From Deinococcus radiodurans R1 = ATCC 13939 = DSM 20539 (GTDB lineage: Bacteria > Deinococcota > Deinococci > Deinococcales > Deinococcaceae): a DNA stretch of 32,000 nt. The translations under genes were made by a program, and so were the position numbers. The notes under the pieces were generated by a model, which searched no databases, was not told where the DNA came from, and saw only the letters and a list, made by a program, of their open reading frames with translations. Numbering within the stretch: position 1 is the first letter of the stretch; each line of letters opens with the position of its first letter. Where the stretch lies: positions 511,213-543,212 of the forward strand of contig NC_001263.1 of the NCBI RefSeq assembly GCF_000008565.1, read 5' to 3'. Below are positions 11,532 to 32,000 of the stretch, in pieces.

Positions 11532-11538
11532 GGCCCGT

Positions 11539-15694: not shown

Positions 15695-15746
15695 TGAGCT
15701 TTCGTGTGTTTTCGCCTCTCTCGCCCTCGCTGGGCAGCGCTGGGGG

Positions 15747-16118: not shown

Positions 16119-16177
16119 GCTTTAAGTGTTTCACAGGTTCAAAAACGCCCCCGCTGACAGAACGCTTAAAAATCCGC

Positions 16178-17035: not shown

Positions 17036-17704
17036 CGTGACCGCCCCGCCCCAGGGGTGCCAGGTCTACCCCCCAGCGCTGCCCAGGCTCAGGCAAAGGC
17101 GAAAAAATACCGGGCAAGTTTTCGCCACTTGCCGCCCAGCACCGGGCAAAACCGCGCCGCGTGCGAGCAAAAACGGGGCAGAACTGGGCGCCGTGTAAGC
17201 AAAAACGCCCCCCAGCGCTGCCCAAACTGGGAAAAACCGGGTAAATGTTGCCCCCCGGCGCACACTGAGCGCGTCACACCGAACAGCCCAGAACCGCCCG
17301 CCCAGCGCGTGAAAACAGGGGCGAGAGGGTGTGAGCTGGGGTTATGTAGGCGGATTCTCCTGAGCCAAATTGAGCCGCTCGACGGCTCGCCCGCCGTCCG
17401 GTGTATTACCAGCCCGCCCCCAGAAAACACACCGCCCCCGCGTGCCCGCCTATCACTTTCGTTTAAAACGCGAGTGCGCCCAGCACGGCGAAAACCCCGC
17501 GAGCGGCTGGGCGGTTTTGCTGTTTCAAACGCGAAAACCGCCGCGAGCGGTGAAACATTCTGGGGGCATATCGGCGGCCCCGCCCAAATGGTCAGGCGGG
17601 GGCCGTTTTGCTGACCATTTGCTCAGCGCCCAGCACATGCCCGCGAGGTGCTGGGCGGTCATTTTCCTACCGTCAGGCAAATGACCGCGAGCCGCGCCCA
17701 GCGA

Positions 17705-17730
17705 GCAAAAACCCCCGCGATGGGCGGGGG
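17705..17730 (-). terminator. intrinsic terminator after the 17782-18774 gene
   Basis: Stem CCCCCGC (17712-17718) / GCGGGGG (17724-17730) with a 5-nt loop. On the minus strand it is followed by TTTTTG. Confidence 0.55.
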
Positions 17731-17781
17731 CAGTGTGAGCAGCGGTGAGCAGAACTGAGCAGAAAACGGGGCAGCGCTGGG

Positions 17782-18774
17782 CTACTCGCTGGGGTGCTGC
17801 TCGCCCAGCACCCCCCGCAGCGGCCCCGGTGTGTCTCTGCCCTCGCGCTCGCGGCGGGCCGCCTCTAGGTCATGTAAGGCACGGTAGAGCACGCGCTCTA
17901 GGTGCGCTTCATACCGCGTGACTTTCTGGGCCTCAGCCTCACCGGGCAGCGCTGCCAGGGCGAGCGCGTCAGCCTCAGCGCTGAGGGCCTCGCGCTGGGC
18001 GGCCCTGATTTTTGCCGCCTCCCCGCGCTCAAACTCGGCAGACTCCCCCAGCATCTCGCCCGCCTCATCTCCCCAGAACTCGCGGTAAAACGCGAGCAGC
18101 CCCGGCAGCTCGCCCGGTTCATACGTCCATTTGTGCCCCTCGACGCTCGCCGCCTCGCCCCGCCTGGGGGCGCGGCCCAGCATGGCCCGCACCATGTCAC
18201 CCGCCCGCGCTGGGGGGTCAGCGTCGAGCAGCTCACCCGCGAGGGCCGCGCCCAGGTGCGCCGCGTCACGCTCGCCCAGCCCCTCAGCGCTGCCCCCACC
18301 TGCCCAGCGGCTCAGGTGTGCCGCCGCCCGGTCATGCTGGGCCGCCTTATGTTCGGGCAGCCCAGGCACCGCCGCGAGCAGATGGGGCGAGGTGCCCGCC
18401 GCGTCAGCGAGCCGCGCCCGTGCCCGCTTGACATTCCCGGTGCCCCGGTATCCCTCCCCCTCAGCAATAGCGGCCCGTGTCGAGCGCTGGGCCTCGCGTA
18501 TCTGGGCCGCCTCATACCGTGCCACGCGGTCAAGTCGCCACAGGGCGAGGGCCGCCCGGTCTGCTAGGCGCTGCTCTAAGTAACTCGCGGCCCCGGTGCT
18601 CGCCCGTATCTGCTCGACGTGCTGGGCGTATGCCTCGCGCTCGCCCTCGCTGACGTGCTCGCTCAGAATCCCGTGCCGCTGGGCGTTTGCGCCCCTGGGG
18701 TCACGCTCGACGGTCTGACCCTGGGGCATGTCGAGCACCCCCGCCGCGTTTGTTTCGTAATTTTCGCCGTTCAC
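17782..18774 (-). CDS. hypothetical protein (Ala/Glu/Arg-rich, helical)
   Basis: 330 aa. GTGA-coupled to the upstream gene. No family recognised. Confidence 0.6.
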   Translation of the reverse strand: MNGENYETNAAGVLDMPQGQTVERDPRGANAQRHGILSEHVSEGEREAYAQHVEQIRASTGAASYLEQRLADRAALALWRLDRVARYEAAQIREAQRSTRAAIAEGEGYRGTGNVKRARARLADAAGTSPHLLAAVPGLPEHKAAQHDRAAAHLSRWAGGGSAEGLGERDAAHLGAALAGELLDADPPARAGDMVRAMLGRAPRRGEAASVEGHKWTYEPGELPGLLAFYREFWGDEAGEMLGESAEFERGEAAKIRAAQREALSAEADALALAALPGEAEAQKVTRYEAHLERVLYRALHDLEAARREREGRDTPGPLRGVLGEQHPSE

Positions 18775-18989
18775 CGTTCACCACCTGGGCCGCTGCCCTC
18801 TAGCATCCTGACCGCCCGCTCTAGCTCGCTGACGGTGTACCGTGCCCGCTCGACTTGGGCCGCTCGCCGCGCCTCTGGGGTTTTCGCGTGCGCCTCCATG
18901 AGTACGAGCCTGACGCCCCGCGAGGCCAGCTCCCAGAGCAGGGGGTCAACCTCAGCGGGCCGCCTGAGCCTGAACCGCCCGCCGCTCAC
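18771..18989 (-). CDS. hypothetical small protein
   Basis: 72 aa. The junction GGTGAGCGGTGAGCGG supplies an SD-like box plus the GTG/TGA overlap. Confidence 0.55.
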   Translation of the reverse strand: MSGGRFRLRRPAEVDPLLWELASRGVRLVLMEAHAKTPEARRAAQVERARYTVSELERAVRMLEGSGPGGER

Positions 18990-19246
18990 CGCTCACCCTC
19001 TGGGGGCAGCGCTGCCGCGTCGAGCACCTGGGCGAGCACCGCCCAGCCGTCAGGGGTCAGGGTGCCCGCGCCGGTCACGTACCCCGCCGCGTGTAGGGCG
19101 TCGAGCTGGGCCGCGCTGGGGGGGCGGTGCTCGACGGTCACCGCGAGGGCCTGAACCTGGGCCGCGAGGGTGCCCCAGCCGCTCGCGCTGAGGGCCTGGG
19201 CGTATGCCCTGAGCAGCGCCGGCGCGTATTCGTGCCGCGTGCTCAC
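18986..19246 (-). CDS. hypothetical small protein (possible paralogue of the next gene)
   Basis: 86 aa with a coupled start. It shares a G-x-LTP-x-G-x-A-x-L segment with 19243-19506. Confidence 0.55.
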   Translation of the reverse strand: MSTRHEYAPALLRAYAQALSASGWGTLAAQVQALAVTVEHRPPSAAQLDALHAAGYVTGAGTLTPDGWAVLAQVLDAAALPPEGER

Positions 19247-19506
19247 CTCTCACCCCCAGCGCTGCCCAGCCCTAACCGCTCGACGTGGGCACGTACCGCC
19301 GCGAGGCCCTGGGCGGTGAGCTGCCCGCCTGGGGTGAGCACCCCCAGCCCCTCAGCCGTCGAGCGGGCCGCGTTTTTGAGTCTGCCCAGCCTGGGGGCCT
19401 CGCGGCTGAGCAGCTCGCCCAGCCCCGGCACCGCCTGACCCTCTACCGTGCCCGCGTACACGTCGAGCGCGGCCCAGGTCACGGCGTTCATTTTCGCCCG
19501 CGTCAT
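19243..19506 (-). CDS. hypothetical small protein
   Basis: 87 aa. ATGA-coupled start. It ends in GSAGGER, encoded by a 14-mer copy. Confidence 0.55.
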   Translation of the reverse strand: MTRAKMNAVTWAALDVYAGTVEGQAVPGLGELLSREAPRLGRLKNAARSTAEGLGVLTPGGQLTAQGLAAVRAHVERLGLGSAGGER

Positions 19507-19979
19507 GACTCGCCCCGCTCAGCCTCAGCGAGTTTCAGCCCAGGGCGCAGCGCCCAGCGGGGGGCCACCCCGTGACACATACACCGGGCCGCCGCGTGCA
19601 TGACGGGCAGCGGCGGGGCATCAGGCCCCGGCCCGCCCGGTGCCCAGGGGGTATGAACCGCCCAGCCTAACGAACACTCCCCCATGAGGCGGCCCCAGTC
19701 TGGGGCGGCAGTGAAGTGTCTACAGGTGCCGCACCGCCCGCGCTCAGCCGCCCGCGCTGCCATATCGGGCACGGGGCGAGTCTGGGGGCGCGGCGGGGCA
19801 GCGGGCGGCCCCTGAACCGGGGGCGAGCTGGGCACCGGGGGGCGAGGTGCGGGGCGGGGGGGCAGCGAGGGCACCGGGGCCGGCGCGGGCACCTGAACCG
19901 GTTCAGGCGGGGCAGCGCTGGGGGTAGTTTGCCCGCGTGCCGCCCTGAGCTGGGCGAGAAAATCTGAGGAAAACGTCAC
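19503..19979 (-). CDS. hypothetical Pro-rich / Cys-rich protein
   Basis: 158 aa. A long proline-rich linker is followed by CGTCRHF...C...CMCH. The start overlaps the primase stop. Confidence 0.55.
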   Translation of the reverse strand: MTFSSDFLAQLRAARGQTTPSAAPPEPVQVPAPAPVPSLPPRPAPRPPVPSSPPVQGPPAAPPRPQTRPVPDMAARAAERGRCGTCRHFTAAPDWGRLMGECSLGWAVHTPWAPGGPGPDAPPLPVMHAAARCMCHGVAPRWALRPGLKLAEAERGES

Positions 19980-22651
19980 GCGCTCACCCCCTCGCCCTCT
20001 GCCCCGTCGAGCGCCGCGAGCGCGTCAGGGTGCACCCTGAGCGTTTTCACGGGCCGCCCGCCCGCCTTACCGCCTGGGGGCGTGCTGACTTCTACCCTCG
20101 CGGCCCCGCACTCGCTGAGCACTTTTAGAGCCGCGTCGAGCCGGGGGCCGGTCATACCCGCCTTACCCTCAGCGAGCACCCGGCGCACGTCTGCCACCTT
20201 GTGACCATCACACACGCGGCCCCGCTCGACGTACCCCAGCACCGTCTGAGCGTCGAGCACGTCAGCCCGCCGCCCCTCGCGCCACAGTTTGCGGGCGTGC
20301 GCCGCGAGGTACTCACACCACACCGCCGCGAGCGCCGCCGCCTCAGCGCCAACACGGGCGGGCTGAGGGTGAGCGCTGCCCAGCGTCACCACGTCGAGCG
20401 CGTGAAAAATCAGGGCGAGCCGTGCAAATGTTGCCGGTTGCTTAGAGATATGCGCCCGGTATGCCTCGCCCCGGCTGAGGTCTTTTAGGGCCTGGGCGTG
20501 CTGACGTTCCCAGGCGTCGTAAACCGCCTGAGCCTCTGGGGTGTAGAGCAGCGGGGCCGGGCCGCCGCTGGGGTACACGCTGCCCAGACTCTCAGGGGTC
20601 AAGGTGCCCAGCCCGTCGAGCACCGCCGCCGCCGCCTCGCGGAGCGCCTCGCTGACCGGCTCGCGCTGGGCGGCTTGGTCAAACTCTGGGAAGATGTCAG
20701 GCCAGATAAACACCTGAAACCGTTGTAAGAGGCCGTCACCGGCCCCGCGCTGGGCGTCGAGCACGTCAGCGAGCGGCCCCGGTTGGATACCGCCCAGCAC
20801 CCCAGCGCACATCAGCGGGATATGTACCACCCCGCGAGAGACGCGCTTGAGCGTAAAAGACTCGGTGCCGTTTGCCGCCTCCAAATAAAACGCCCGTTCA
20901 GTTTCACGCCCTGAGCGCTCAAACCCCGCGAGCCACCCGGTCAGCTCATCACGTACCACCGTCACACCCTGGGGGCTGTCCCTCAGAATCTCGCCCAGCG
21001 TCTCGGCGTTTGGGTCGTTGACCACGTACCACCGGGCAGTAAGGGCCGCCTCAGCCTCGCGCAGCGCCTCGCGTGCCTCTGTCAGCTCATCATCTGAGGG
21101 CATCTCGACGGGTTTACCGCCCCCCTTAAATGCCCGTTTCACGCGGGCTTCTAGCGCCTCTAGCTGGGCCGCCGCCTTACCTCTCGCGGTTTCCAGTTCT
21201 GAGCGCTGGGCGTCGAGCCGGTCAAACTCTGCTTTCTGGGCGCGAGTCAGCACCGCCGCCCCTCTATTCACGGCGTAGGTTTTTTTCAGCCCAGGCCGCC
21301 CGCATACCGCGCCCCAGAGGTTCGCGGGCACCGCTGGGGTGTTGGGGGCGTTTTTCAGTTTCACCGCCGCGCTGAGCATCCCCCCAGCACCGACGAGCAC
21401 CGGCCCCGCGAGCACCTCTAAGGGCAGCCCCGCCGCCCGCGCCTCAGCCTGTATCCACTGGGCGAGCGGGGCGGGCAGCAGCTCGACGGGCAGCGGCGGC
21501 ACCGGTTCAGTCACCGGGGGCAGAGGGGCAACCTCGCCCCAGGCCACCGGGGGCAGGTCAGCGGCGGCGGGGCGGGGGGCGCCACCCCCAGCGCTGCCCC
21601 GCTCAGGCTCAGGCAACCCCAGCACGCGGGCGGCCCGCTTGACCAACTCGCGCCGCTGGGCAGGGTCAGCCGTGTACACGTCCACACCCTCAGCGAGCAG
21701 CGCCCAGACTCCGAACGCGTCACGGGGCAGCCCATCCCCCAGGGGGTCGGCAGCGTGCCAGCTCATCACCACCTGAGCGCCTCGCGGGGTGCGCTCAGGG
21801 CGCAACCTCACGCCCGCCTGACCGCTCGACGAGCCGGGGTAAAGCCAGGGGCCATGAGGCCCGCCCTTATACCCGTGCTCGCCCAGCACCTCAGCGAGTG
21901 AGCGCGAGGCGTTAAACGTGTCTATGACGCTCGCCCCCTCGCCCTCACCGCCGCGCGAGCTGCCACCGCCCAGCCGGTTCAGGTCACGCTCAGCCGGGGC
22001 GGGCAGCTCAGCCGGTGCCCAGGGGCACGCGGCCCGCATGACCGGCAACAGGGCCGCCCAGCGCTGCCACAGGCTCAGCAGTTCGGGGGGCAGTTCGGGC
22101 AGCTCGCCCAGCGAGGCGGGCACCGGCCCCGTCCATTCATAGGGCCGCCCGGTGTCAGGGTGCACGCTGGGCGGCATCACGTCCTGCACCCCAGCCCCGC
22201 CGCGTAGCTCAAAAATGGTCAGCGGGGCGGGCCGCCCGCCGGGGCCTTTCTTGCCGCTGGGGTCAGGCCAGCTCAGGGCGTGCCGGTTCAGGCTCAGCCC
22301 GTCAGGGACGCGGAAAATAGGCTTTTCACCCTTCTTACCCCTGACCCGGTAGGGGTTAGAGGCGAGCACCGCCGCGAGGTCTACGCCCACCGCCGCGAGT
22401 GCGAGCGCCGCGCCGTCGTGGTCTATGTCGAGCGCGGCGGTTTGACTCTCAGAGTGCAGCAACCCCACACCGGCCCCAGGGTGCGCCGTGAGGTACTCGC
22501 GGGCAGCGCTGGGGGTGGTAATCCACTGGGCGGGGTCAGAATCCCATCCCTTCGCGCGGGGGCCTTTCGTGCCCTGGGGCACCGGCACCAACGCGGCCCA
22601 GCTCGCCAGGGCCTCAGCCTGGGCGATACGGTCAGCAAAGGGCGCGGTCAT
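19976..22651 (-). CDS. replication protein: bifunctional primase-polymerase (Prim-Pol) N-domain fused to a DUF3987-type helicase-like domain
   Basis: 891 aa. The N-terminus has LVPVPQGTKGPRAKGW, ALDIDHD (DxD) and PPSVHPDTGRPYEW, typical of Prim-Pol. The C-terminal half (FYLEAANGTESFTLKRVSRG...GGIQPGPL) resembles DUF3987 proteins of phage and plasmid primases. Confidence 0.8.
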   Translation of the reverse strand: MTAPFADRIAQAEALASWAALVPVPQGTKGPRAKGWDSDPAQWITTPSAAREYLTAHPGAGVGLLHSESQTAALDIDHDGAALALAAVGVDLAAVLASNPYRVRGKKGEKPIFRVPDGLSLNRHALSWPDPSGKKGPGGRPAPLTIFELRGGAGVQDVMPPSVHPDTGRPYEWTGPVPASLGELPELPPELLSLWQRWAALLPVMRAACPWAPAELPAPAERDLNRLGGGSSRGGEGEGASVIDTFNASRSLAEVLGEHGYKGGPHGPWLYPGSSSGQAGVRLRPERTPRGAQVVMSWHAADPLGDGLPRDAFGVWALLAEGVDVYTADPAQRRELVKRAARVLGLPEPERGSAGGGAPRPAAADLPPVAWGEVAPLPPVTEPVPPLPVELLPAPLAQWIQAEARAAGLPLEVLAGPVLVGAGGMLSAAVKLKNAPNTPAVPANLWGAVCGRPGLKKTYAVNRGAAVLTRAQKAEFDRLDAQRSELETARGKAAAQLEALEARVKRAFKGGGKPVEMPSDDELTEAREALREAEAALTARWYVVNDPNAETLGEILRDSPQGVTVVRDELTGWLAGFERSGRETERAFYLEAANGTESFTLKRVSRGVVHIPLMCAGVLGGIQPGPLADVLDAQRGAGDGLLQRFQVFIWPDIFPEFDQAAQREPVSEALREAAAAVLDGLGTLTPESLGSVYPSGGPAPLLYTPEAQAVYDAWERQHAQALKDLSRGEAYRAHISKQPATFARLALIFHALDVVTLGSAHPQPARVGAEAAALAAVWCEYLAAHARKLWREGRRADVLDAQTVLGYVERGRVCDGHKVADVRRVLAEGKAGMTGPRLDAALKVLSECGAARVEVSTPPGGKAGGRPVKTLRVHPDALAALDGAEGEGVSA

Positions 22652-22869
22652 CGAGCACCCCCAGCGCTGCCCAGGTGCGCCCCGCTCGCCTGTAGCTCGC
22701 TGAGCCTGTCGAGCAGCCGCCCCGCGATTTTTTCCAGCTCGCCCAGGGCGTCATACTCGCCCCGTGCCCGCATCTCTGGGGCCTCGCGCTCTATGTACTC
22801 GCTCAGGCTCGCGTGCTGCTCGCATAGCTCGCGGTACAGGACGCGGGGCGAGGGGGTGAACGCGAGCAC
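22648..22869 (-). CDS. hypothetical small protein upstream of the primase (start uncertain)
   Basis: ATGA-coupled to the primase start. The plausible coding part is VLAFTPSPRVLYRELCEQHASLSEYIEREAPEMRARGEYDALGELEKIAGRLLDRLSELQASGAHLGSAGGAR. GTG at 22869 or 22893. The rest of the 218-aa track ORF runs through repeat cluster B. Confidence 0.4.
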   Translation of the reverse strand: MLAFTPSPRVLYRELCEQHASLSEYIEREAPEMRARGEYDALGELEKIAGRLLDRLSELQASGAHLGSAGGAR

Positions 22870-22871
22870 CT

Positions 22872-23150
22872 GGGGAGTAGGAGTAGAAAACACTTCCCCC
22901 CTAAAACCCCCTGGGCTACCCTCCCCCCCCAGCGGGGGCAGGGTGAACAGTTTTTGTGCGCTGGGCGCGGGTTTCTCGCGCTCGCCCTGGGCGGTGCCGG
23001 TGTGAGTAGGAGTAGGCCGCGAGGTTATGGGGGCGGTAGGGGGGGAGACGATTCTACTCAAACCCCCGGCCCCGTTTTCTACTGTTTTCCCCGTCTGGGC
23101 CGGGGTTTTTGCCTCTGCCCCAGAGTAGAAAACAGGTTTTAGGGGTTTCT
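22872..23150. repeat. iteron-like cluster B (related to cluster A)
   Basis: GAGTAGGAGTAG occurs at 22875-22886 and 23014-23025. CCCCTAAAACCCCCTGGGCTACCCTCC at 22897-22923. An inverted copy GAGTAGAAAACAGGTTTTAGGGG at about 23123-23145. CTACTC/CTACTG boxes at 23054-23080. GAGGTTATG is shared with 8901-8909. Confidence 0.7.
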
Positions 23151-23264
23151 GGGGCGCCTTAACACATACGAAAATGCACGCGGCCCCGCTCGCGGTGCTC
23201 TCCGGTAGACTCTGGGCAAGCCCGCCAGCCTGCCCCCGCCCCGTGCCTGCCATATGGGGCGGTT

Positions 23265-23561
23265 TCATTTTTGCCCCTGAGCCGTCGAGCGCTCGGCCCG
23301 CCACGCGTCGAGCTGGGCGCGGTGAATGCGGTACACGGGCCGTGCGGGGGTGCCGTAGTTTTCAGCGAGCAGGCGGCCCGCTTTAATTTCGTTTCTGATG
23401 AGGTCTTGCCCGACGCGCAACAGGGCCGCCGTCTCTACCACGTCGAGCACGGGCAGGGTTGCGAGCTGCTCAGGGGTCAGGGTGGTACGTTTGCGCCCGT
23501 TCGTCACTCTGGGCGAGCGGGTCAGGTTTTCAGCATGTGTGCTGGGGTTAGGGGTGGTCAT
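23265..23561 (-). CDS. excisionase-family / MerR-like HTH DNA-binding protein (candidate Xis)
   Basis: 98 aa. LDVVETAALLRVGQDLIRNEIKAGRL...YRIHRAQLDAWR matches the HTH_17/excisionase pattern. GAGGG lies 8 nt before the ATG. It sits at the opposite end of the element from int. Confidence 0.7.
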   Translation of the reverse strand: MTTPNPSTHAENLTRSPRVTNGRKRTTLTPEQLATLPVLDVVETAALLRVGQDLIRNEIKAGRLLAENYGTPARPVYRIHRAQLDAWRAERSTAQGQK

Positions 23562-23717
23562 GTAAAGCCCTCGCGGTACACCCCAGCCGCGCCCCGCGTC
23601 GAGCGCAGGGGGCTAGGGGTAGAGCTGGGCGGGCCTGACTCGCCGCGTACCGTTTACGGCGTAGGGGTGTCAGGTTGCCCGGTGAGCGCTTCCCCGGTCA
23701 GGGGCAGCGCTGCCAGC

Positions 23718-24548
23718 TCAGGCGAGGGCAGGGGGCGCGAGGGGTGCGGCTGGGGGTATGGCCCGCGAGTAGAGCGGGCGAGGGGCGCGACGAACTGGGG
23801 GCCGCCGCTTAGGTTTACGGGGAGCCATGCGCCGCAGTACCCGTAGCAGCACGCGTACCGTTCGCCAGAATTGCCGCCGCTCGTTACGGTGCTCGCGCCC
23901 TTTGGGAAGTTGGAGAACGAACGAGTAGAGGGACGCCCTGAGTTGCGCTCCTAACGGTTCAAACCCATGCATGAGTTGCTTTACAACTGCCTGCGGGCCG
24001 CCTGGGAGATGCTTTGCAAGACTTAGAAGGATGTTGCCCCAGTGGTAGCCGTACTGGGCCGCTGTGGTTAGCTTTTCAGTCAGATAAGCGGGCTGAGGCG
24101 CGGCTATGTAAGTGCGGGGCAGCCCCAGACTCATTTTCTCTACCGGCGCTGCCCAGGCTGCAAACCCCGCGAGCTGCTCAGCCCCGTTTACCGGCTCCCC
24201 CCCCAGCGCTGCCCCCGCCTGGGCGTCAGGCTTAGCAGCGGGCCGCCCAGGGGCGAGCATGGCCCAGAGGCCCCAGCGGTACACCCCGGCCCCGCGCATG
24301 ACGGCACGGCGGTAGTGGCGAGCAGTCCAGGGGTCAGGGTGAACGCTCAGCGAACCGTCAGGGGTAACGTTGCCCAGGGTGGGTACGTCATGTGCCATAA
24401 GCTCAACCTCGACGCGGCGAGGTTCGCCCAGCCAACCGCCCGTGACGATTTGCACGGGCAGATAAACACAGCCGCCGTTAACCCTTATGACATACGCGCC
24501 CCAGACGTTTACACGTTTAGGGGTGGGCAGGGTCACGGGGGCGGACAT
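23718..24548 (-). CDS. hypothetical protein with a basic C-terminal tail
   Basis: 276 aa. First gene inside attR on the minus strand. The C-terminus reads RRMAPRKPKRRPPVRRAPRP. No family recognised. Confidence 0.55.
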   Translation of the reverse strand: MSAPVTLPTPKRVNVWGAYVIRVNGGCVYLPVQIVTGGWLGEPRRVEVELMAHDVPTLGNVTPDGSLSVHPDPWTARHYRRAVMRGAGVYRWGLWAMLAPGRPAAKPDAQAGAALGGEPVNGAEQLAGFAAWAAPVEKMSLGLPRTYIAAPQPAYLTEKLTTAAQYGYHWGNILLSLAKHLPGGPQAVVKQLMHGFEPLGAQLRASLYSFVLQLPKGREHRNERRQFWRTVRVLLRVLRRMAPRKPKRRPPVRRAPRPLYSRAIPPAAPLAPPALA

Positions 24549-24596
24549 ATCTCTATCTTACGCCCTGTTACGGCTGAGCATAAGTGAGGCGGCTAG

Positions 24597-24620
24597 GGTG
24601 TCAAACGGTTGTCAAACGTA
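24597..24620 (+). promoter_or_regulatory. candidate integrase/Xis arm-type site pair, attR side
   Basis: GGTGTCAAACGGTTGTCAAACGTA. It matches 7265-7288 at 22 of 24 positions and lies in the same orientation. Confidence 0.6.
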
Positions 24621-24748
24621 CTGGGCAGAATGACCGCCCCCCGTACCCCCTGGGGCGTAACGCCTGAGATACATTTTTACCGTCTGGGCGCGGCGCCTGC
24701 CCCTAAGCGCTCGACGGGGCACCCCTCGCCCGTTTTCCCGCTCATCCC

Positions 24749-24794
24749 CCTTCTAAGCGGTCGGTCGTAGGTTCAAGTCCTACAGGGTGCACCA
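24749..24794 (+). repeat. attR: displaced 3' fragment of tRNA-Arg (anticodon loop to CCA)
   Basis: 45 of 46 positions identical to 7150-7195. It has no 5' tRNA half upstream, so it is not a functional tRNA. Confidence 0.9.
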
Positions 24795-24798
24795 GAAG

Positions 24799-24835
24799 AA
24801 CCCCCACTTTTGATGGGGGTTTTACTTTTTGTTTG
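24799..24835 (+). terminator. intrinsic terminator, presumably the original tRNA-Arg terminator
   Basis: Stem CCCCCA (24801-24806) / TGGGGG (24814-24819) with a 7-nt loop, followed by TTTTACTTTTTGTTTG. Confidence 0.6.
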
Positions 24836-24951
24836 CGATAGACCGTTTAATCGGCGCCGCTTACTTCAACGAGCATCTCAGGATCGGCTTAGGGACAGGA
24901 ACGGTGCTCTGAATATTGATGAGCAACAAGTCTGGTCCCAAGGGATCGGAT

Positions 24952-27030
24952 TTACCGGTAGATAGGAATCTTGACATAGACATTCTTTTCACTGCCGTTG
25001 TCGAAGGTCACTGTTCCGATGGCGTTGATCTGCGTATACGAGCGATCAGAGCGCTCCCGTACAGTGAGTGGCAGAGTAAAGATCAAGGTGCTGCCGTCCT
25101 GAAGAAAGTCAGTCGCCAAAACCCCGGCAGTCTGTGACGGCCAGACGTCTGGAGCATCAATGGGAAATTTCTGCGTCGTACCGTCTTCCTCGTACTCCAG
25201 TTCGTAGTTGAACACGGCACGTATGGGGCTGGTCCCATTAGGAATCGTCTCGATGACGACGGCACAATGTTGGATTTGCCCGGGTGTGAGGTAGGCCTGC
25301 TCTGTGCCACCGGCGTCATCCACGCAGCCGCCAAATGTCCAATTGAGAAATTTGGGGGCGCCCTGCCGCGTTTCTGAACTTTCGGCAACTGTGTCGGCAG
25401 ATGGCTCGGTGGGCAACTCCGTGGTGACGCTGTGCTGTAGTTCCTTGAAGATCTTCCCTGTCTCGCTGGTGATAAAGAGCTGTCCTCCAGTCTTGATCAG
25501 CCCGAGATCGGTGTAGGCCTGCCCGGTCAGTTGTTTGCCAGGCCGGGTCAGGTCATAGCTGTAGTTGAAGCGCACCTGTCGGGTGTTGGCGCCTTCGGAC
25601 AGGGTCTGAACCTCGGAAACCCGCTGATACGAGCGCTCGGGCCAGCGCTTGAAATACCCAGCTTTGTCCTTTCGCAGCGCTGCTTTGGCCTGAAGACCCT
25701 GGTCAAAGTAAGTGACGCGGTCAGCATAGTGATTGATCGCTGCCGTCAGGTCATGACCACTGCCTGCGGCGAGGTAATCGTCCACGAAGGTCACAACTTC
25801 ATCGTCCGTGATGGGGTCTTCACTGGGCGGCAGCGCTTCGACAGGCGTCGCTTCTGGCGGCGGGATGATGGCGGCTGGAGGTTCAGGATCGGTAGGCACA
25901 GGCTCAGCAGGAGGTGAAGGCTCCGGTTCAGGAGGCTGTTCTTCTGTTTGCGACTGCTCTGCGACGGGAACCTGCACCTCCTCCGGAGTTTCAGTGGGTG
26001 CAGAGACGTCATTCTCCGACGTGCTTTCACTGACAGCTGTGACCGTTGAGGATCGCGGTGTGGAGGCCAACTTGTACCCGCCCAGGACAACAAGGCCAAT
26101 CACGAGTGGAATCCACCACGGAAAGCCGGCGCGTGACTGTGTCGGTCCAGGGTCAGGTGACTGGGGAGCCGCCGGGGGTGAAGGAACAGAAGGTGGAGGA
26201 GCGGGAGGTTCCTGCTGCGAAAGGATTGCCTGAGTGGGCTGAGCGCGTCGGAGTTCTTCCAGCACCTCGGCGGCGCTTACGGCGCGGACAGCCGGGTCCA
26301 ACTGCAAGCAGGATTCGAGGGCGTGGGCAACTTGAGGCGGAATTCCTGCTGGCCAGCTGGGGAGCCGCACGCCTTGCTGCCGTGCCGAGACGGGGGACAA
26401 CGCGGTGCCCGTCGCCGCTTCGAGCAGGGTGGCTGCCAGAGCGTACAAATCCGTCTGGGGGGTATAAGGGCCCCCCGAAAGCAGTTCCGGTGCGGCATAA
26501 CGCGGGTCGTGCGGCCAGTGGTCACGAAGTTCCTGCGCGGTGCGCCGTGCAAGTCCAAATTCTGCCAGCAGTGGCCGCTTCTGTGTATCAAACCAGACGG
26601 CTTCCGGACTGATCTGGGTATGGAGCAGAGCGCCCTGATGTGCAGCCGACAAGCCTTCAAACAGCGCCGTTGTCAGGGGCTGAAGCAGTTCCGGTGAAAC
26701 TGGCCCAGCGGACAGCAGCTCACGTAGAGTGATGGTGCGGCGCGGTTCGAAGACCAGAGAGAGCCACTCGCCTTCATCGATCAAATCACGCACGGGCAGC
26801 ACGTGGGGACTGTGCACCTGCAAAAGACTGCGGGCGTACCTCAACCAAGTCTGCCTTGCCCGTTGACCCCGAGGTGTGCCAGGGTCTGCAACCGCATAGA
26901 AACTGACCAAAACCTGCTCGTTCCACTCGGTGTGAGCTCGGTAAAGTGCCTCGTGTGGGGTGCTGTGCAACTGCTCATCGAGCAGATACCTTCCGGCTCT
27001 CCGGGCTCCTTGCTCAGGCCACTCAGCCAT
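24952..27030 (-). CDS. single-pass transmembrane pseudokinase (degenerate Ser/Thr kinase fold, Pro-rich linkers, extracytoplasmic NTF2-like and beta-rich domains)
   Basis: ATG at 27030 lies 6 nt after AGGAGG and overlaps the LRV gene stop by 8 nt. The kinase fold is recognisable (YAAPELL, DLYALAATLLEAATG, LQLDPAVRA), but the catalytic positions are substituted (see findings). TM helix FPWWIPLVIGLVVLGGY. The C-terminal part begins DDEVVTFVDDYLAAGSGHDL... Confidence 0.85.
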   Translation of the reverse strand: MAEWPEQGARRAGRYLLDEQLHSTPHEALYRAHTEWNEQVLVSFYAVADPGTPRGQRARQTWLRYARSLLQVHSPHVLPVRDLIDEGEWLSLVFEPRRTITLRELLSAGPVSPELLQPLTTALFEGLSAAHQGALLHTQISPEAVWFDTQKRPLLAEFGLARRTAQELRDHWPHDPRYAAPELLSGGPYTPQTDLYALAATLLEAATGTALSPVSARQQGVRLPSWPAGIPPQVAHALESCLQLDPAVRAVSAAEVLEELRRAQPTQAILSQQEPPAPPPSVPSPPAAPQSPDPGPTQSRAGFPWWIPLVIGLVVLGGYKLASTPRSSTVTAVSESTSENDVSAPTETPEEVQVPVAEQSQTEEQPPEPEPSPPAEPVPTDPEPPAAIIPPPEATPVEALPPSEDPITDDEVVTFVDDYLAAGSGHDLTAAINHYADRVTYFDQGLQAKAALRKDKAGYFKRWPERSYQRVSEVQTLSEGANTRQVRFNYSYDLTRPGKQLTGQAYTDLGLIKTGGQLFITSETGKIFKELQHSVTTELPTEPSADTVAESSETRQGAPKFLNWTFGGCVDDAGGTEQAYLTPGQIQHCAVVIETIPNGTSPIRAVFNYELEYEEDGTTQKFPIDAPDVWPSQTAGVLATDFLQDGSTLIFTLPLTVRERSDRSYTQINAIGTVTFDNGSEKNVYVKIPIYR

Positions 27031-29617
27031 GGTGGGCCTCCTGACGCGCCGCATGTTGACGGTCCTGCCGTGCCTGCTCGATATTCGGGTGATCGAGGCG
27101 AGACGCCATCCGAACTGCCCTGGGCGTGGCAGCCGGGTGCACGATGACAGCGGACAGGATCAGCACGTCCGAAAGAGCCCGTGCCGAAGCGCGTTGTTTT
27201 GACCAGCGCCGCCAGCGCCTGAGCAGAACATGTTCACCGAACGGCAGGCGGCGGGTCCAGCGCTCAAGTCGCAAGAAGCGCTCGTAAGCCGCGTCGTAGG
27301 CCAGATGTTCCAGGGTGCCACCGTCCGTATTTGAATGGTGGGCCACTTCCAGCCGCAGGTGACGATGATTAGCCAGTTGCCGCAGAAGGGCCGGAGTACA
27401 GGCAGGGTTGCGGAGAATGCTCCGCTGAACGGACGCCTGAGAGTCCATGGTCAGCTTCTCCAGGGTGGGAGGAGGCGTGCGCGGATCGCGGGCGACGGCT
27501 TCCCGAATCTCGGTCCTCGTGACATCGGCCAGCTCGGCCAGCAGTTCCGGCGTGGCGAGTGGGTGACGGACCAAGGACAACAGAATGTCTCCGTCGTTGA
27601 GAGAAGCCTTCAACACGACGCTCAGCACATTGGGGTCCACATCCTTGCGCCGGAGCAATTTTTGACGGAGCTGCGCACTCGCATCTTGCGCGAGCACAAC
27701 CTGCAATCCGAAGGCGAGTTCCTCACTGCGACTGATGATGCCGGACCTGACTTCTTCCTCCGGGTCATTGACCAGGACCTCAAGTGTTTCCTGAGGCGTG
27801 CGGGGATGTGAGGCGACCTTACAGCGCACGCGCAAGGCGTCACTCTGCCCGAGTGAAGCCAGCGCCTCCGCACTCACGTCTGGCTGACCCACTTCCTCCC
27901 ATTCGAGGTCATTGAGTTTGGCCTGCACCTGTCCGTAGCGTGGATGCTGTCGGATGACCGGACGCATAGGCTGTTCCGGCAGCCGGCGTTCCAGCGCGCC
28001 ACCAGGGGCAGCAGGATTAAGGAGGACGTTCAGGCGAACGTCCCGCAGGGGGTCGTCACTGAGGGCGACCAGAAGGTCATCCGGCGTGCTGACATTGCTG
28101 CTCAGCCCCTCCCGCACCCGGGCGTCGAACAGGGGAAGAGCCGCCAGTTCCTGTCCTGGCGTGCTCGGGCTCGCGGCCTGCGCAACGCGCTGCACTTCGG
28201 GCACCTGATCACCCAGCAACAGGGCACGGGCAGCCGACGGGGTATGCGGATTGAGGCCCACTTGCGCCCGCACCCGGGGGCTGCGGTCCCTGCTGAGCCG
28301 GACCAGCATCTCGGCGGGCGCTTGCTGGGCGGCAACGGCGAGCTTCGCATTGCGGCGGCGAGTCTCCAACGCCTGCTGCGCCTGAGCCTGGCTCAGGGGC
28401 GCCCGGCGCAGGTTGGCGACGAACTGCACGCGTTCGTTGGCGTCCTGAGCGAGCGCGTCTAGAACCTCACTGGGTGTATAGGGATGAGCCGCCACCGCCT
28501 CACGGATGGCGTAGCGCGCGTCTCCTGCCAGCAGGCTCAGGGCTTCTGGTGGGCTGCTCGGGTTGCGGGCCACTTGCAACCGGACGGCGTGGTCTCCGTC
28601 ACCGGCCAGTGCCAACAGGGTCGGTCCACTGGCGTGAGGGTGGCTGGCGACATGCTCACGAATGGTCACATGGTCCGGGTCCTGCGCCAGAGCAGCCAGT
28701 TCTTCCGGCTCTGCATTCGGGTTCTCGGCGGCGGCGGAGCGCACCCACCAGTCCGGGTCCACCGTCAGGCCCAGTCGGGCTTCTCGGGGAAGGGCCGGAT
28801 TGCGGGCCACTGCCGCCCGCTCCTCCCAGGTGCCTTTCCAGGCAAAGTTCAGCAGCAGGCTTTCTTCTAGCGGGCCTTCTTCCAGGCGCCGCAACAACGT
28901 TTCCCGCGCCTCACCGTAGGGCCGCTGCTCATCCAGCCACAGCAGCAGGTCCAGCGGAAGCAGTGGGTGGCGCGCCGCCAGTGACCAGAGCCTGCGGGTG
29001 GCCTGAATTTCCGCCGTTTCGTCCGCCGTGATTTCTGGATCAGTTCGGCGGTCGAGCAGGCGCTCGCGGAGCGGCCTGAGCACTTGCGCTGCGCACTGAG
29101 AGACCGTTGCTGTGTCCTGCGGCGCAGCCGCTTCGGGTACCGCAGGCGGCTCGGCGAGAGGAGCGGCGGGGGCTGAAGGAGACAATTTGGCTGCTGCTTT
29201 CCGGATTCGCATAGGCACGGAAGCGTTCGTCTTGAGGTACTCACAGAGGCCAGGATTTTCCTGCGCCTGGGCAATGATCCAGGTTTCTCCCCGACTGGGC
29301 CGATAGTCGAGAAGCTGTTTGATGTGCCCATTGAGGATCAGTTCGATGACTGTCTCGTCGGTCGTGGCCGGATGCTGCGCCGCTATGGCGGCTGTATATG
29401 TCCCCAGAATGCCGAGCAGGGCGAGCTGCTCGGGCGTCAGAAGCTGGGGCGTCCGCTCGGCGAGGTCTATCACCTGCGCGAGCTCGGGGGGAAAACTCAT
29501 GTGTTTCCGCGCCGCGCGCCGCACAGCCGAGTTGGAATGCGCGGCCAACTGCGCCAGGCGCGCCGCTGGTGTGCCAGGGTCGCTGGCTTCTTGAAGCAAA
29601 CCTGAGAGGGCGGTCAT
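27023..29617 (-). CDS. LRV (leucine-rich repeat variant) / HEAT-like alpha-solenoid repeat protein, 864 aa
   Basis: At least 15 units of about 23-24 aa of the form D-x-D/E-x-x-VR-x-x-(V/A)A-x-(N/H)P-x-x-P-x-x-x-L-x-x-LA. An example stretch is DWWVRSAAAENPNAEPEELAALAQDPDHVTIREHVASHPHASGPTLLALAGDGDHAVRLQVARNPSSPPEALSLLAGDARYAIREAVAAHPYTPSEVLDALAQD. Confidence 0.85.
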   Translation of the reverse strand: MTALSGLLQEASDPGTPAARLAQLAAHSNSAVRRAARKHMSFPPELAQVIDLAERTPQLLTPEQLALLGILGTYTAAIAAQHPATTDETVIELILNGHIKQLLDYRPSRGETWIIAQAQENPGLCEYLKTNASVPMRIRKAAAKLSPSAPAAPLAEPPAVPEAAAPQDTATVSQCAAQVLRPLRERLLDRRTDPEITADETAEIQATRRLWSLAARHPLLPLDLLLWLDEQRPYGEARETLLRRLEEGPLEESLLLNFAWKGTWEERAAVARNPALPREARLGLTVDPDWWVRSAAAENPNAEPEELAALAQDPDHVTIREHVASHPHASGPTLLALAGDGDHAVRLQVARNPSSPPEALSLLAGDARYAIREAVAAHPYTPSEVLDALAQDANERVQFVANLRRAPLSQAQAQQALETRRRNAKLAVAAQQAPAEMLVRLSRDRSPRVRAQVGLNPHTPSAARALLLGDQVPEVQRVAQAASPSTPGQELAALPLFDARVREGLSSNVSTPDDLLVALSDDPLRDVRLNVLLNPAAPGGALERRLPEQPMRPVIRQHPRYGQVQAKLNDLEWEEVGQPDVSAEALASLGQSDALRVRCKVASHPRTPQETLEVLVNDPEEEVRSGIISRSEELAFGLQVVLAQDASAQLRQKLLRRKDVDPNVLSVVLKASLNDGDILLSLVRHPLATPELLAELADVTRTEIREAVARDPRTPPPTLEKLTMDSQASVQRSILRNPACTPALLRQLANHRHLRLEVAHHSNTDGGTLEHLAYDAAYERFLRLERWTRRLPFGEHVLLRRWRRWSKQRASARALSDVLILSAVIVHPAATPRAVRMASRLDHPNIEQARQDRQHAARQEAHHG

Positions 29618-29620
29618 AGG

Positions 29621-30226
29621 CTAGGGTGTACTCTTCTGCGCGTACTCGACGACGATTTCTACGCGCTCGTTTTGCGGCGCGAACTTGTGACCGTTGAAAG
29701 GCGTTTGACCACCGCGGGCGGCCACCGCCAGCCGGTTCGGGCTGATGCCACCACGCAGGTAAAACGCGGCGGCGACTGCACTCGCTCGCGTAGCAGACAG
29801 GTCCCACCGCTCCGGTGTATTGGGCCTGGAGGTCTGGGTGTGCCCCTCGATCCGGATCCGCTTCCAGTTCTTTTTCTGAGAGCGCAGCACCTGAGCGAAA
29901 TCCACCAGGGCGGTCTCTCCCTCAGGCGTCAGAACAGCGCTCTCACCGACAAACATGTTCTCCGAACGAAAAACCCAACGCTGGGCGCCTGGAGGATCGT
30001 TGCGTTGCACGGGTGACAGGAGCTGAGGCCGCACCGAAAGCGGCGCACGCCGGACAGCAGCGACGACTAGCTCCTGGGCCTTGCGGTACTTCACCTGATC
30101 CCAGCCCGCTTGCCCCACCGCCAGAATACCGCCGATGAAAAAAATCAGGACAAAAATCAGGTTCAGCGTCAGGTCACTGAAAGCGATGTAAGGGTTGGTG
30201 TCGCCCCGAAGACGCGACGTGCTCAT
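29621..30226 (-). CDS. MotB/ZorB-like protein: N-terminal TM helix with conserved Asp plus an OmpA-like peptidoglycan-binding domain
   Basis: ATG directly follows GGAGGGAAGG. YIAFSDLTLNLIFVLIFFIGGILAV places Asp18 at the TM entry, as in MotB/ExbD/TolR. The C-terminus IRIEGHTQ...WDLSATRASAVAAAFYLRGGISPNRLAVAARGGQTP is an OmpA_C-like core. Confidence 0.85.
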   Translation of the reverse strand: MSTSRLRGDTNPYIAFSDLTLNLIFVLIFFIGGILAVGQAGWDQVKYRKAQELVVAAVRRAPLSVRPQLLSPVQRNDPPGAQRWVFRSENMFVGESAVLTPEGETALVDFAQVLRSQKKNWKRIRIEGHTQTSRPNTPERWDLSATRASAVAAAFYLRGGISPNRLAVAARGGQTPFNGHKFAPQNERVEIVVEYAQKSTP

Positions 30227-30250
30227 CCTTCCCTCCAGGCACGGCGGCGC

Positions 30251-31486
30251 TCAATCCCCACTTTGTACCTCGGCGCGCGAGCGGCTCAGGGCGCGGGACA
30301 ATTCGCTGAAGGAGTGATCGAGACGTGCGGCGTAATTGCTCTGCTCGGTGCGGAAGGTCTGGCCCGACTCTTCAAAGCTGTTACTTGCCCGGCCCAGTTG
30401 ATCGCCGACACGGGTGATCTGCTTGAGCAGTTCGGACGTGGTGGCCTGCACCGTGTCCTGGAGGCGACTGACCGTCGTCGCTTGCTGAGCGAGGTTCTGC
30501 TGCAACTCCGTGCTGCTCGTGCGCAGGGACGAGGCGGCGCTTTCCTGAGCCTGCACCAGGTCCGACACGCCGCGACTCAGGCCCACAGTGAGTTCCTTGA
30601 CAGACGTGTCCATCTGCCCGAAAACTTGCTCAATCTGTACACTGGTGTCCGAGAGTTGCGTCAGGCTCTGGCCCAGAGTGTCGCCCGCCTTGCCGAGCAC
30701 GCTTTCGAGTTGGACCGCCACGTCTTGCAGCCTCTTGTGAATGTCCTGAAAGCTATTGCCCGCGTCGCGCAGGTAGCGGCCCATGCGCTCCATTTGCGAA
30801 GTGATGGCGCGGGGGAAGGTGGCTGGGACAAGTTCGGCGTGTACAAAGGCGTTGAGTTCGTCCTCAAAGGTTTCCTGCGCGCGGGCGGCCAGCGCAAAGG
30901 CTACCCCGGTGCCCAGGCTTAGCAGGATGCCCCACAGACTTGCCCCAAACGCCCCCTGCATGACACTCATGGTGCTGGCAAGGGCGTCGGCAAGTTCTCC
31001 CGGCTCTGTGGCCCGCGCGGCGTTGCGGATCGGAGTCACGAGGGTTCCGATTGACCCGGCGAGGCCCATCACCGTGCCCAGCAAACCAGCGAGCATCAGC
31101 AGGTTGGGAATGTTGCGCGCCGACGAGAGGCCAGCTTGTGCGGCGGCGCCCACGGCCTGCGTCGCCGCCTGCAAGTCCGGCGTGGCAAGAGTCCGGGCGC
31201 GGGTCACAGCCACCACCGCTTGCCGCACGGCGCTGGTGGCGGGCAAGGCCTGCGCGGCACGCCAGGCGTCCTCAGCCACTTCGTCGGATTCTGGCGGGTC
31301 CTCGGTGTCTAGGGCAGGCAAGACTACCTGGCGGATTTGTTCTAGAAAGCTCCGTTCCTGTTGGCGCCGCTGACGAGCCACGGCCAGGGCCCGCATGAAG
31401 TAAAGAGTAAGCGGCAACATGACGGCGAGCAGGACCAGCCAGCCTTCGGGCCTCAACTGAAAGAGGGTATTCAGAAATTCACTCAT
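30251..31486 (-). CDS. MotA/ExbB/TolQ-family proton-channel protein with a ~215-aa C-terminal helical tail (ZorA-like architecture)
   Basis: TM1 is WLVLLAVMLPLTLYF. The channel core NIPNLLMLAGLLGTVMGLAGSIG ... MQGAFGASLWGILLSLGTGVAFALAA carries the LLGTVxG signature. Residues from about 195 to 411 are Q/S/T/L-rich helix with no TM segment. Confidence 0.85.
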   Translation of the reverse strand: MSEFLNTLFQLRPEGWLVLLAVMLPLTLYFMRALAVARQRRQQERSFLEQIRQVVLPALDTEDPPESDEVAEDAWRAAQALPATSAVRQAVVAVTRARTLATPDLQAATQAVGAAAQAGLSSARNIPNLLMLAGLLGTVMGLAGSIGTLVTPIRNAARATEPGELADALASTMSVMQGAFGASLWGILLSLGTGVAFALAARAQETFEDELNAFVHAELVPATFPRAITSQMERMGRYLRDAGNSFQDIHKRLQDVAVQLESVLGKAGDTLGQSLTQLSDTSVQIEQVFGQMDTSVKELTVGLSRGVSDLVQAQESAASSLRTSSTELQQNLAQQATTVSRLQDTVQATTSELLKQITRVGDQLGRASNSFEESGQTFRTEQSNYAARLDHSFSELSRALSRSRAEVQSGD

Positions 31487-31489
31487 GGT

Positions 31490-32000
31490 TTACCCGAACA
31501 CGCTGTAGCGTTGGCCGAAGGGATGCTCAACGTCATCAGGGTGGTATTCGCACTTCAGGCCCTGGCCGATGACGTCCTCGAAGGTTTCGCCCACTGGGCC
31601 ACCACAGACCCGGCAGTAGTACCCCTGAGTGTTGGCAACGCGGCCTTTGGGCAGCCGTTCTCCCTTGTCCTTGTACAGGCCGTCAATGAGGTTGTTATCG
31701 GGCGGAAATGTCTCCAGCAGGGCCTGTCTCAGGTCAGCATCCTGCGTCAGGTACGCCATCAGGGCCGTCTGGGCTGCCTGATCGCTCCAGTCCCGAACAG
31801 CGCGGGCGCTGCTGCTGCTCATATTGTCGTGTAGCCATTTGACGTAAGCCTGCCTTCCCTCGGCGGGCGTGGGGTAACGGCCCACGATGGCTTTGCGCCG
31901 TGCCTCTATCTCGCTACGCAGGTACGTCGCGGCATTTGTGAGGCTCTTGGAGGGCCGCGAGCTGTCCTGCGGCTCAAAGGCCAGTTGCCGCGCGGCCTTG
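31490..32000 (-). CDS. hypothetical protein, C-terminal part only (first gene of the operon; frame stays open to the right edge)
   Basis: The track start GTG 31885 is not the real start. The same frame reads on without a stop to position 32000 (...KAARQLAFEPQDSSRPSKSLTNAATYLRSEIEARRKAIVGRYPTPAEG...). It contains YYCRVCGGPVGETFEDVIGQGLKCEYH (CxxC...CxxH). The stop is 3 nt before the MotA-like start. Confidence 0.65.
   Translation of the reverse strand, partial: KAARQLAFEPQDSSRPSKSLTNAATYLRSEIEARRKAIVGRYPTPAEGRQAYVKWLHDNMSSSSARAVRDWSDQAAQTALMAYLTQDADLRQALLETFPPDNNLIDGLYKDKGERLPKGRVANTQGYYCRVCGGPVGETFEDVIGQGLKCEYHPDDVEHPFGQRYSVFG

Follow-up and report, generated by a model that had tools for sequence, protein, structure and literature searches.

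The last gene of the FtsZl1 operon of Deinococcus radiodurans encodes a predicted membrane-anchored pseudokinase

A pseudokinase is defined by sequence as a kinase-fold protein in which at least one of the VAIK lysine, the HRD aspartate and the DFG aspartate is absent. In bacteria, pseudokinases without all three motifs are relatively common (PMC12599244), and seven families have been named: ActPs1-3, GLW, CP1, DYD and DLHK (PMC12599244; bioRxiv 10.1101/2025.01.12.632604). Kinases also appear in descriptions of the FtsZl1 system, which was described by Makarova and Koonin in 2010: Ser/Thr kinases are a recurrent neighbour class of FtsZl1 (Figure 2C of that paper), some planctomycete FtsZl1 proteins are annotated as kinases, and Additional file 5 lists the D. 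radiodurans genes DR_0540 to DR_0534, the last of which is labelled as a COG0515 Ser/Thr kinase (PMC2875224). DR_0534 is also counted among the Ser/Thr protein kinases (STPKs) of D. radiodurans, as a candidate phosphatase substrate kinase (bioRxiv 10.64898/2026.01.23.701218). In this work, we analyse a stretch of 32,000 nucleotides of D. radiodurans R1 (contig NC_001263.1, positions 511,213 to 543,212 of the forward strand; hereafter, the window) that contains DR_0534, and argue that its product is very probably a catalytically dead pseudokinase. The operon link of the gene is already published; the loss of the catalytic residues is not mentioned in that source (PMC2875224).

The N-terminal domain of DR_0534 has a well-preserved kinase fold, as an original prediction made from the DNA sequence by eye had proposed. 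The Pfam Pkinase profile (PF00069) matches residues 70-265 (residue numbers refer to the 692-amino-acid protein) with 65 bits against a gathering cut-off of 31.7 (E=9.2e-18), and the MAD6, MkoA and PD-T4-6 profiles match the full domain. The best-scoring kinase subfamily profile is that of the MADS defence kinase MAD6 (NCBIfam NF047741), but its 104 bits compare with a cut-off of 460, and DR_0534 is not a member. AlphaFold2 models residues 1-275 with a mean predicted local distance difference test (pLDDT) of 93.1 and a predicted template modelling score of 0.90; the model is bilobal and has the expected beta1-beta3 strands, alphaC helix and C-lobe helices. When the model is compared with the PDB using Foldseek, the best neighbours are Staphylococcus aureus Stk1/PknB and Mycobacterium tuberculosis PknA/PknB, with a template modelling score of ~0.8.

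Within this fold, the Gly-rich loop, beta3, the catalytic loop and the DFG motif are all degenerate. In phmmer alignments with PDB kinases (mycobacterial kinases and CDK2), HTQISPEA is placed opposite HRDVKPAN and EFG opposite DFG. When DR_0534 is aligned with canonical bacterial kinases by MAFFT, HSTPHE falls at the GxGGxG position, VLVS at VAxK and Y65 at the alphaC Glu; Q139, S141 and A144 stand at the catalytic Asp, Lys and Asn, and E157 at the DFG Asp. In an alignment of 56 sequences, the columns of K43, N144 and D157 are at least 90% conserved, with DR_0534 and its relatives as the deviants, while H137, F158, E182, D194 and R249 are invariant. The beta3 Lys-alphaC Glu bridge, HRDxKxxN, the DFG Asp and GxGxxG, which together characterize a competent Hanks kinase, are thus all absent, and none of the three residues used to define pseudokinases is present. 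What DR_0534 keeps is structural: the APE motif (180-182), the alphaF Asp (D194), the alphaH-I Arg (R249) and the His of HRD (H137), together with the regulatory-spine residues L69, H137, F158 and D194.

These alignments place the losses exactly where the original prediction had placed them by eye, and the retention of APE, helix F and the helix-H Arg, which it had also described, corresponds to E182, D194 and R249. At the catalytic positions, the hidden Markov model and PDB alignments show neither Lys nor Asp nor Asn, as the predicted loss of phosphotransfer requires. The statement that every catalytic residue had been lost needs a small correction, because the Asp, Lys and Asn are gone but the His of HRD is kept. 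The further statement that no lysine precedes the catalytic loop is literally true: residues 1-150 contain no Lys, the first being residue 151, and the whole kinase-like domain contains one Lys and 23 Arg. In this Lys-poor genome, with a local Lys frequency of 2.1%, such an absence is only weakly surprising (P ~0.04). It excludes a relocated lysine of the WNK type. Binding of ATP and Mg is predicted to be lost as well.

The same losses are found in the relatives of DR_0534. A word-indexed search returns three close relatives: one from D. taklimakanensis (71-72% identity), one from D. deserti (46-48%), which is annotated as a 'putative kinase' on replicon CP001116, and one metagenomic protein (~50%). 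An exhaustive profile search of 1.84 billion representatives adds ~8 more clusters; past these pseudokinase clusters, the profile matches grade into ordinary and multi-domain kinases. The resulting clade consists of about a dozen clusters at 50% identity, which diverge to ~34% identity, and its named members all belong to Deinococcus. Note that the distribution given here was derived from protein searches and contig look-ups, since a genome-wide locus scan using an automatic peptide pattern was too clade-specific and found 2 loci.

All 13 clade sequences that were tabulated lack the beta3 Lys, the alphaC Glu, the Lys and Asn of the catalytic loop and the DFG Asp, and an Asp at the HRD position occurs in a single member, a fragment of 229 amino acids (P0153) that reads HTD. 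Elsewhere in the clade, the HRD position reads HTQ, HHR, HTA, HTR, HRR, HGR or QGR, and the first position of DFG is E, G, Q, R or P; among the relatives, the position of the beta3 Lys is S, T, N or E, and that of the alphaC Glu is Y, H, S, N, A, Q or L. In addition, the phosphate-binding loop, which lacks Gly, carries a conserved acidic residue. Such drift at active-site positions is expected once catalysis is no longer selected. APE and D194 are unchanging in the clade, and so is R249 except in the 229-amino-acid fragment, which is truncated C-terminally. Among four proteins at 45-72% identity, 100 columns are invariant, including L69, H137, F158, D194, APE and R249. A clade-specific motif, TPxGxRxRQ, is located in the beta3-alphaC loop (residues 52-60, window 26851-26877); it is present in most family members and not in canonical kinases, and may be a phosphosite or an interface.

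To judge how selection acts on the domain, DR_0534 was compared with its D. taklimakanensis orthologue by the rates of non-synonymous (dN) and synonymous (dS) substitution. The kinase-like domain gives a dN of 0.18 and a dN/dS of 0.078 and the ectodomain a dN/dS of 0.084, ratios that are approximate because synonymous sites are near saturation; the linker has a dN of 0.59, threefold above that of the domain. This purifying selection indicates a functional pseudokinase rather than a decaying gene. Since the domain is kept by selection and its catalytic residues are gone, it is presumably maintained for something other than catalysis.

DR_0534 is predicted to be a bitopic membrane protein with a cytoplasmic N-terminal domain. 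The kinase-like domain is followed, in order, by a Pro-rich linker, a hydrophobic segment (FPWWIPLVIGLVVLGGY), a Pro/Glu-rich linker, an alpha+beta region and an all-beta C-terminal domain. The region beyond the membrane segment comprises ~370 amino acids, not ~330 as first estimated; ~250 of these lie in folded domains and the remainder is Pro/Glu-rich linker. The alpha+beta region resembles NTF2/SnoaL proteins weakly (Pfam SnoaL_2, E=0.0025, under the cut-off), is modelled as helices and long strands with low pLDDT, and is common only to DR_0534, its D. taklimakanensis orthologue (P0002) and one metagenomic clade member (P0152). The all-beta domain is modelled with a pLDDT of ~90, and Foldseek finds generic Ig/arrestin-like matches to it in the PDB; it recurs as the C-terminus of signal-peptide-bearing proteins of ~340 amino acids, of which the named ones are all from Deinococcus.

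The ectodomain varies among lineages. The metagenomic member P0152 has the same pair of NTF2-like and beta-sandwich domains as DR_0534, and the D. taklimakanensis orthologue has a cytochrome c domain inserted in its ectodomain. Most clade members carry an SH3b and a NosD-type beta-helix domain instead. The cytochrome c insert, the signal peptides on the stand-alone homologues and the SH3b and beta-helix modules all support a location of the C-terminal part outside the cytoplasm.

In topology, DR_0534 resembles its best structural match, PknB/Stk1, which has an N-terminal cytoplasmic kinase domain, one transmembrane helix and an extracellular sensor. However, PknB is active and carries PASTA repeats, whereas DR_0534 has lost the catalytic residues and has unrelated ectodomains. 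Among pseudokinases, it can be likened to MviN (Rv3910) of the ActPs3 family, a Hanks-derived and membrane-associated protein with all three motifs degraded, which acts as a non-catalytic regulator of an envelope process (PMC12599244). ActPs3 proteins differ in that the activation loop is deleted and bulky aromatic residues fill the ATP site, whereas DR_0534 has a full-length segment from EFG to APE; they come from Actinobacteria, where the domain is fused to a lipid II flippase-type protein, whereas DR_0534 is encoded in an FtsZl1 operon. The comparison is by description.

The remaining families (GLW, ActPs1, ActPs2, CP1, DYD and DLHK; O'Boyle et al. 2025) are likewise conserved clades, and several have a transmembrane segment C-terminal to the domain. 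They are distinguished by features such as GLW in place of HRD (GLW family), a beta3 Arg, HRN and large insertions (ActPs2), or a cytosolic location and a link to COG3899 (CP1), and they occur in Actinobacteria, Proteobacteria and Cyanobacteria, whereas the DR_0534 clade belongs to Deinococcus. DR_0534 has no GLW motif, no deletion in the activation loop or G-helix, no beta3 Arg with HRN and no COG3899 partner. The two sources mention neither Deinococcus pseudokinases nor FtsZ (PMC12599244; bioRxiv 10.1101/2025.01.12.632604). By their published descriptions, the seven named families are therefore set apart from the DR_0534 clade, which falls outside them.

In the window, a co-directional array runs from DR_0538 through DR_0537, DR_0536 and DR_0535 and ends with DR_0534. 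The C-terminus of DR_0538 (FtsZl1) is 59% identical to residues 902-1067 of the D. deserti FtsZl1 protein (E=1e-66), which itself matches Tubulin_2 (PF13809) with an E-value of 1.6e-69. A CxxC...CxxH pattern (YYCRVCGG...LKCEYHP, window 31490-31630) in this C-terminus is kept in D. deserti and may be a zinc ribbon. DR_0537 is tentatively assigned as MotA/ExbB/ZorA-like: it gives weak ZorA matches (E ~1e-4), and 'MotA/TolQ/ExbB' appears in Additional file 5 (PMC2875224), but a sequence search of the PDB returned coiled-coil matches alone. DR_0536 matches Pfam OmpA (1.4e-20), MotS and MotB in the PDB, MotD and MotB in NCBIfam and, weakly, ZorB. DR_0536 and DR_0537 look like a stator-like pair that is reminiscent of Zorya, though with scores far under the cut-offs. 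A literature search on DR0535 to DR0540 found nothing. The G+C content of the operon region (24001-32000) is 0.59-0.66, below that of the rest of the window (mostly 0.63-0.74); together with the presence of the same operon on the 314-kb D. deserti replicon CP001116, this fits horizontal acquisition.

The boundary between DR_0535 and DR_0534 depends on the start codon that is assigned to the latter. An upstream ATG at 27054 gives a longer open reading frame (ORF) of 700 amino acids (24952..27054), which is the GenBank version and exactly matches AAF10106.1 (DR_0534, D. radiodurans R1), and the ATG at 27030 gives the 692-amino-acid version, which exactly matches RefSeq WP_162177566.1, labelled 'protein kinase'. 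A Shine-Dalgarno sequence, AGGAGG, is located at 27037-27042, 6 nucleotides before the ATG at 27030, and the D. taklimakanensis orthologue, like the RefSeq protein, starts with MAEWP. The spacing of AGGAGG, the MAEWP start of the orthologue and the position of the upstream stop codon inside ATGGCTGA favour ATG 27030, which is likely to be the true start. With this start, the TGA of DR_0535 overlaps codons 2-3 of DR_0534, the two genes overlap by 8 nucleotides, and the arrangement, with its AGGAGG, looks like translational coupling. In several other D. radiodurans assemblies, DR_0534 is annotated just as a C-terminal 'hypothetical protein' of 280-341 amino acids.

The array with an FtsZl1 gene was seen at five or more other loci, and the order FtsZl1, DR_0537, OmpA, LRV, pseudokinase is kept in D. 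deserti, D. taklimakanensis, D. phoenicis and metagenomes. In the operons compared, the LRV gene is always directly upstream of the pseudokinase gene, and the called genes overlap by 8 nucleotides in D. deserti and D. taklimakanensis as well, as they do in one metagenomic locus. The FtsZl1 subfamily, with ~100 clusters at 90% identity, is wider than the pseudokinase clade, although its named members are again all Deinococcus. A word-indexed search with D. deserti FtsZl1 returned this Deinococcus-type subfamily alone and no fusions of kinase and FtsZl1.

The end of the operon is variable. In D. roseus and one metagenome, the operon ends with the LRV protein and contains no kinase-like gene. In the divergent operon of D. 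misasensis, the OmpA gene is followed, in place of the LRV and pseudokinase genes, by a protein that combines a Zn-ribbon, a kinase and WD40 repeats, and this kinase has all the canonical motifs (GQGGFG, VALKE, HRDIKPDN and DFG). Its full-length orthologue in D. detaillensis (E=1e-29) reads VLLLE, IDGQLGPH and LDLG at the corresponding places and has degenerated independently. Across these operons, the kinase-like module is thus an optional final element, always found together with a repeat scaffold, LRV or WD40, and as judged from these motifs it has lost catalysis at least twice. An optional module, a constant repeat scaffold and two catalytic losses are the pattern expected if binding, not phosphorylation, were the main contribution of the module. 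What is new relative to the 2010 description of the system is this series of active, independently dead and kinase-free FtsZl1 operons, the variable ectodomains and the loss of the catalytic residues.

The neighbours of FtsZl1 operons are often of the defence or restriction type. These include a McrBC-like pair with a PDC-S14 domain, a BrxH/DrmD-like SNF2 helicase, AbiEii and Mrr (18415-21776 of the D. misasensis locus, L014; 5602-8484 of the D. detaillensis locus, L015; 1-255 of a further locus, L002; and 2351-3361 of the window). The operon of D. deserti and that of D. misasensis both have AddAB-like nuclease-helicase pairs at their flanks.

From these observations, we infer that DR_0534 is a non-catalytic adaptor of the FtsZl1 system, in which a docking domain is linked to the envelope through the membrane segment and ectodomain; we give this reading a probability of roughly 0.6. 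In this scheme, a partner in the cytoplasm would bind to the dead kinase domain. The best candidate for this partner is the LRV protein DR_0535, because of the apparent translational coupling and the strict co-occurrence of the two genes, possibly with the FtsZ-like DR_0538 alongside it. The transmembrane helix and the lineage-variable ectodomain would then tie the assembly to the cell envelope or report on it, beside DR_0536, the MotB/OmpA-like anchor to peptidoglycan, and DR_0537, its partner in the membrane. The retention of the spine residues fits a stable, active-like scaffold conformation. The operon comparison lends weight to a scaffold or sensor role in the operon, as originally proposed, which remains plausible.

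Several observations weigh against this reading. The predicted membrane segment is only moderately hydrophobic (19-residue Kyte-Doolittle mean ~1.5) and is not flagged by a scan with a threshold of 1.6; a hydrophobic segment is nevertheless found at the equivalent place in all relatives. Some pseudokinases without canonical residues still bind nucleotides, for example ActPs2 (PMC12599244). The pseudokinase gene is missing from some FtsZl1 operons, and at least one lineage of D. radiodurans carries a frameshift in it: two other data sets (CP050120.1 and ERR7055001) have G5 in place of a G6 homopolymer, which splits DR_0534 into a call of 250 amino acids and one of 341 or 451 amino acids. The G5 allele could be true lineage variation or else an artefact of the homopolymer; the intact G6 allele is present on 339 (326+13) of ~355 contigs. 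Together, the frameshift allele and the FtsZl1 operons without the gene imply that the core system can do without DR_0534, at any rate in laboratory culture.

An alternative that is unlikely on its own, but that is compatible with the adaptor role and could add to it, is that the domain or its linkers serve as a phospho-acceptor or decoy, which is phosphorylated in trans by an active Ser/Thr kinase and then recruits a reader protein. There is a precedent in M. tuberculosis, where the pseudokinase MviN is phosphorylated by PknB and then binds FhaA (PMC12599244), and several active STPKs are known in D. radiodurans, along with PP2C phosphatases (bioRxiv 10.64898/2026.01.23.701218). Within DR_0534, the conserved Thr52 of TPxGxRxRQ is a candidate site, and the linkers are rich in Ser and Thr. 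However, neither the operon nor the window was found to contain an FHA-domain gene or an active kinase, conservation does not extend to the activation-loop Thr, and the STRING link given in the preprint rests on the kinase annotation, not on experiment.

A broader and rather improbable reading concerns the whole operon, with its FtsZ-like protein, its MotA/MotB-like pair and its repeat scaffold that carries a kinase-like module. Like Zorya, it might serve in defence against phage or in surveillance of the envelope, with the dead kinase and its swappable ectodomain as the specificity or sensor subunit. Catalysis could then have been dispensable twice, since the kinase fold would act as a conformational switch. 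Like Zorya, the operon pairs a coiled-coil-tailed transmembrane protein (DR_0537) with a MotB-like peptidoglycan anchor (DR_0536), and the weak ZorA/ZorB similarity, the rapid swapping of ectodomains and the patchy distribution are hints in this direction, as are the D. deserti replicon location and neighbours such as Mrr, the McrBC-like genes, the BrxH/DrmD-like helicase, AbiEii and integrases. Against it, the scores lie far below the family cut-offs and the operon has no equivalents of ZorC, ZorD or ZorE. A literature search found no paper linking tubulin-like proteins to Zorya.

It is very improbable that DR_0534 is a non-canonical enzyme, whether by a repurposed fold (AMPylation as in SelO, glutamylation as in SidJ) or by WNK-like relocation of residues. 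Some 'pseudokinases' were later found to be enzymes, and DR_0534 itself keeps His137 and the acidic E157. Across the clade, however, no polar residue of the active site is kept (relatives have G, Q, R or P for E157, and T138 and Q139 are variable as well), the N-lobe lacks Lys, and the phosphate-binding loop has no Gly but a conserved acidic residue. Active-site positions that drift freely are the opposite of the expectation for a new catalytic centre. The idea that the domain is a functionless relic, kept through its fusion to a useful ectodomain or through operon polarity, would account for the frameshift allele and the operons without the gene, but has little to recommend it when the domain evolves under a dN/dS as low as that of the ectodomain, its dN is threefold under that of the linker, its fold and spine residues are kept down to ~34% identity and the intact allele predominates.

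Just beyond the right end of an integrative element of ~17.6 kb (window 7119-24822), which begins with an intact tRNA gene, comes the FtsZl1 operon. The possibility that the operon is cargo of this element was considered and rejected, because attR, a partial copy of the 3' half of the tRNA gene, separates the element from the stop codon of DR_0534. The small ORFs that separate the operon from the PrimPol gene of the element had no match in searches with PHROGs and PADLOC. Elsewhere in the window, an ORF of 721 amino acids (4644-6809, reverse strand) combines ABC ATPase and BPD_transp_1 permease domains in one protein, and a stand-alone PAS-domain ORF (4053-4634, forward strand) adjoins it. Coordinates of the main features are given in Table 1.

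Table 1. Features of the DR_0534 locus and its surroundings, in window coordinates except where another locus is named
Feature	Coordinates	Strand	Residues	Basis or remark
DR_0534 coding sequence	24952..27030	-	692 aa + stop	ORF list, translation
Cytoplasmic pseudokinase domain (predicted)	26236..27030	-	1-265	Pfam, AlphaFold2, Foldseek, dN/dS
Degenerate Gly-rich loop LHSTPHE, no Gly	26950..26970	-	21-27	aligned opposite GxGGxG
beta3 VLVS, S43 for ATP-binding Lys	26902..26913	-	40-43	alignments
Degenerate catalytic loop HTQISPEA for HRDxKPxN	26599..26622	-	137-144	phmmer, family table
EFG for DFG	26554..26562	-	157-159	phmmer, family table
G6 homopolymer	26471..26476	-	codons 185-187	site of 1-nucleotide deletion elsewhere
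Pro/Glu-rich linkers flanking the membrane segment	26125-26235 and 25810-26073	-		
Single predicted transmembrane segment	26074..26124	-	303-319	equivalent in all relatives
Ectodomain part 1, alpha+beta, weakly NTF2/SnoaL-like	25456..25809	-	~408-525	
Ectodomain part 2, all-beta sandwich	24955..25353	-	560-692	homologues P0130-P0146, AlphaFold2
DR_0535, cytoplasmic LRV (HEAT-like) repeat protein	27023..29617	-		Pfam LRV 4.8e-57; no transmembrane segment
DR_0536, MotB/OmpA-like: N-terminal transmembrane helix with Asp (AFSDLTLN) + peptidoglycan-binding domain	29621..30226	-		
DR_0537, three hydrophobic (transmembrane-like) segments + ~200-aa coiled-coil tail	30251..31486	-		hydropathy
DR_0538 (FtsZl1, Tubulin_2), C-terminal 169 aa	31490..32000	-		gene runs past window
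tRNA-Arg(TCT), intact, left end of integrative element	7119-7195			
Tyrosine integrase of integrative element	7287-8621	-		
PrimPol/DUF3987 primase-helicase, element cargo	19976-22651	-		
attR, partial copy of tRNA-Arg 3' half, 84% identical	24743..24822	+		direct-repeat family D8, tRNA, integrase
D. misasensis Zn-ribbon + kinase + WD40 protein	L014 15658-17436			canonical kinase
D. detaillensis orthologue of the D. misasensis protein	L015 15780-17519			degenerate

D. radiodurans is a model of radiation resistance whose STPK signalling is actively studied, and the main value of the finding is a correction of its kinase inventory. If DR_0534 is dead, the active kinome of this organism is smaller than assumed, and experiments that presuppose its activity would be misdirected. 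For the pseudokinases, a small clade that is so far confined to Deinococcus is added, and the series of operons with an active, a dead or no kinase constitutes a natural experiment for a non-catalytic role. The FtsZl1 system, in turn, would gain a membrane-spanning subunit, the variable outer domain of which suggests where the input of the system lies.

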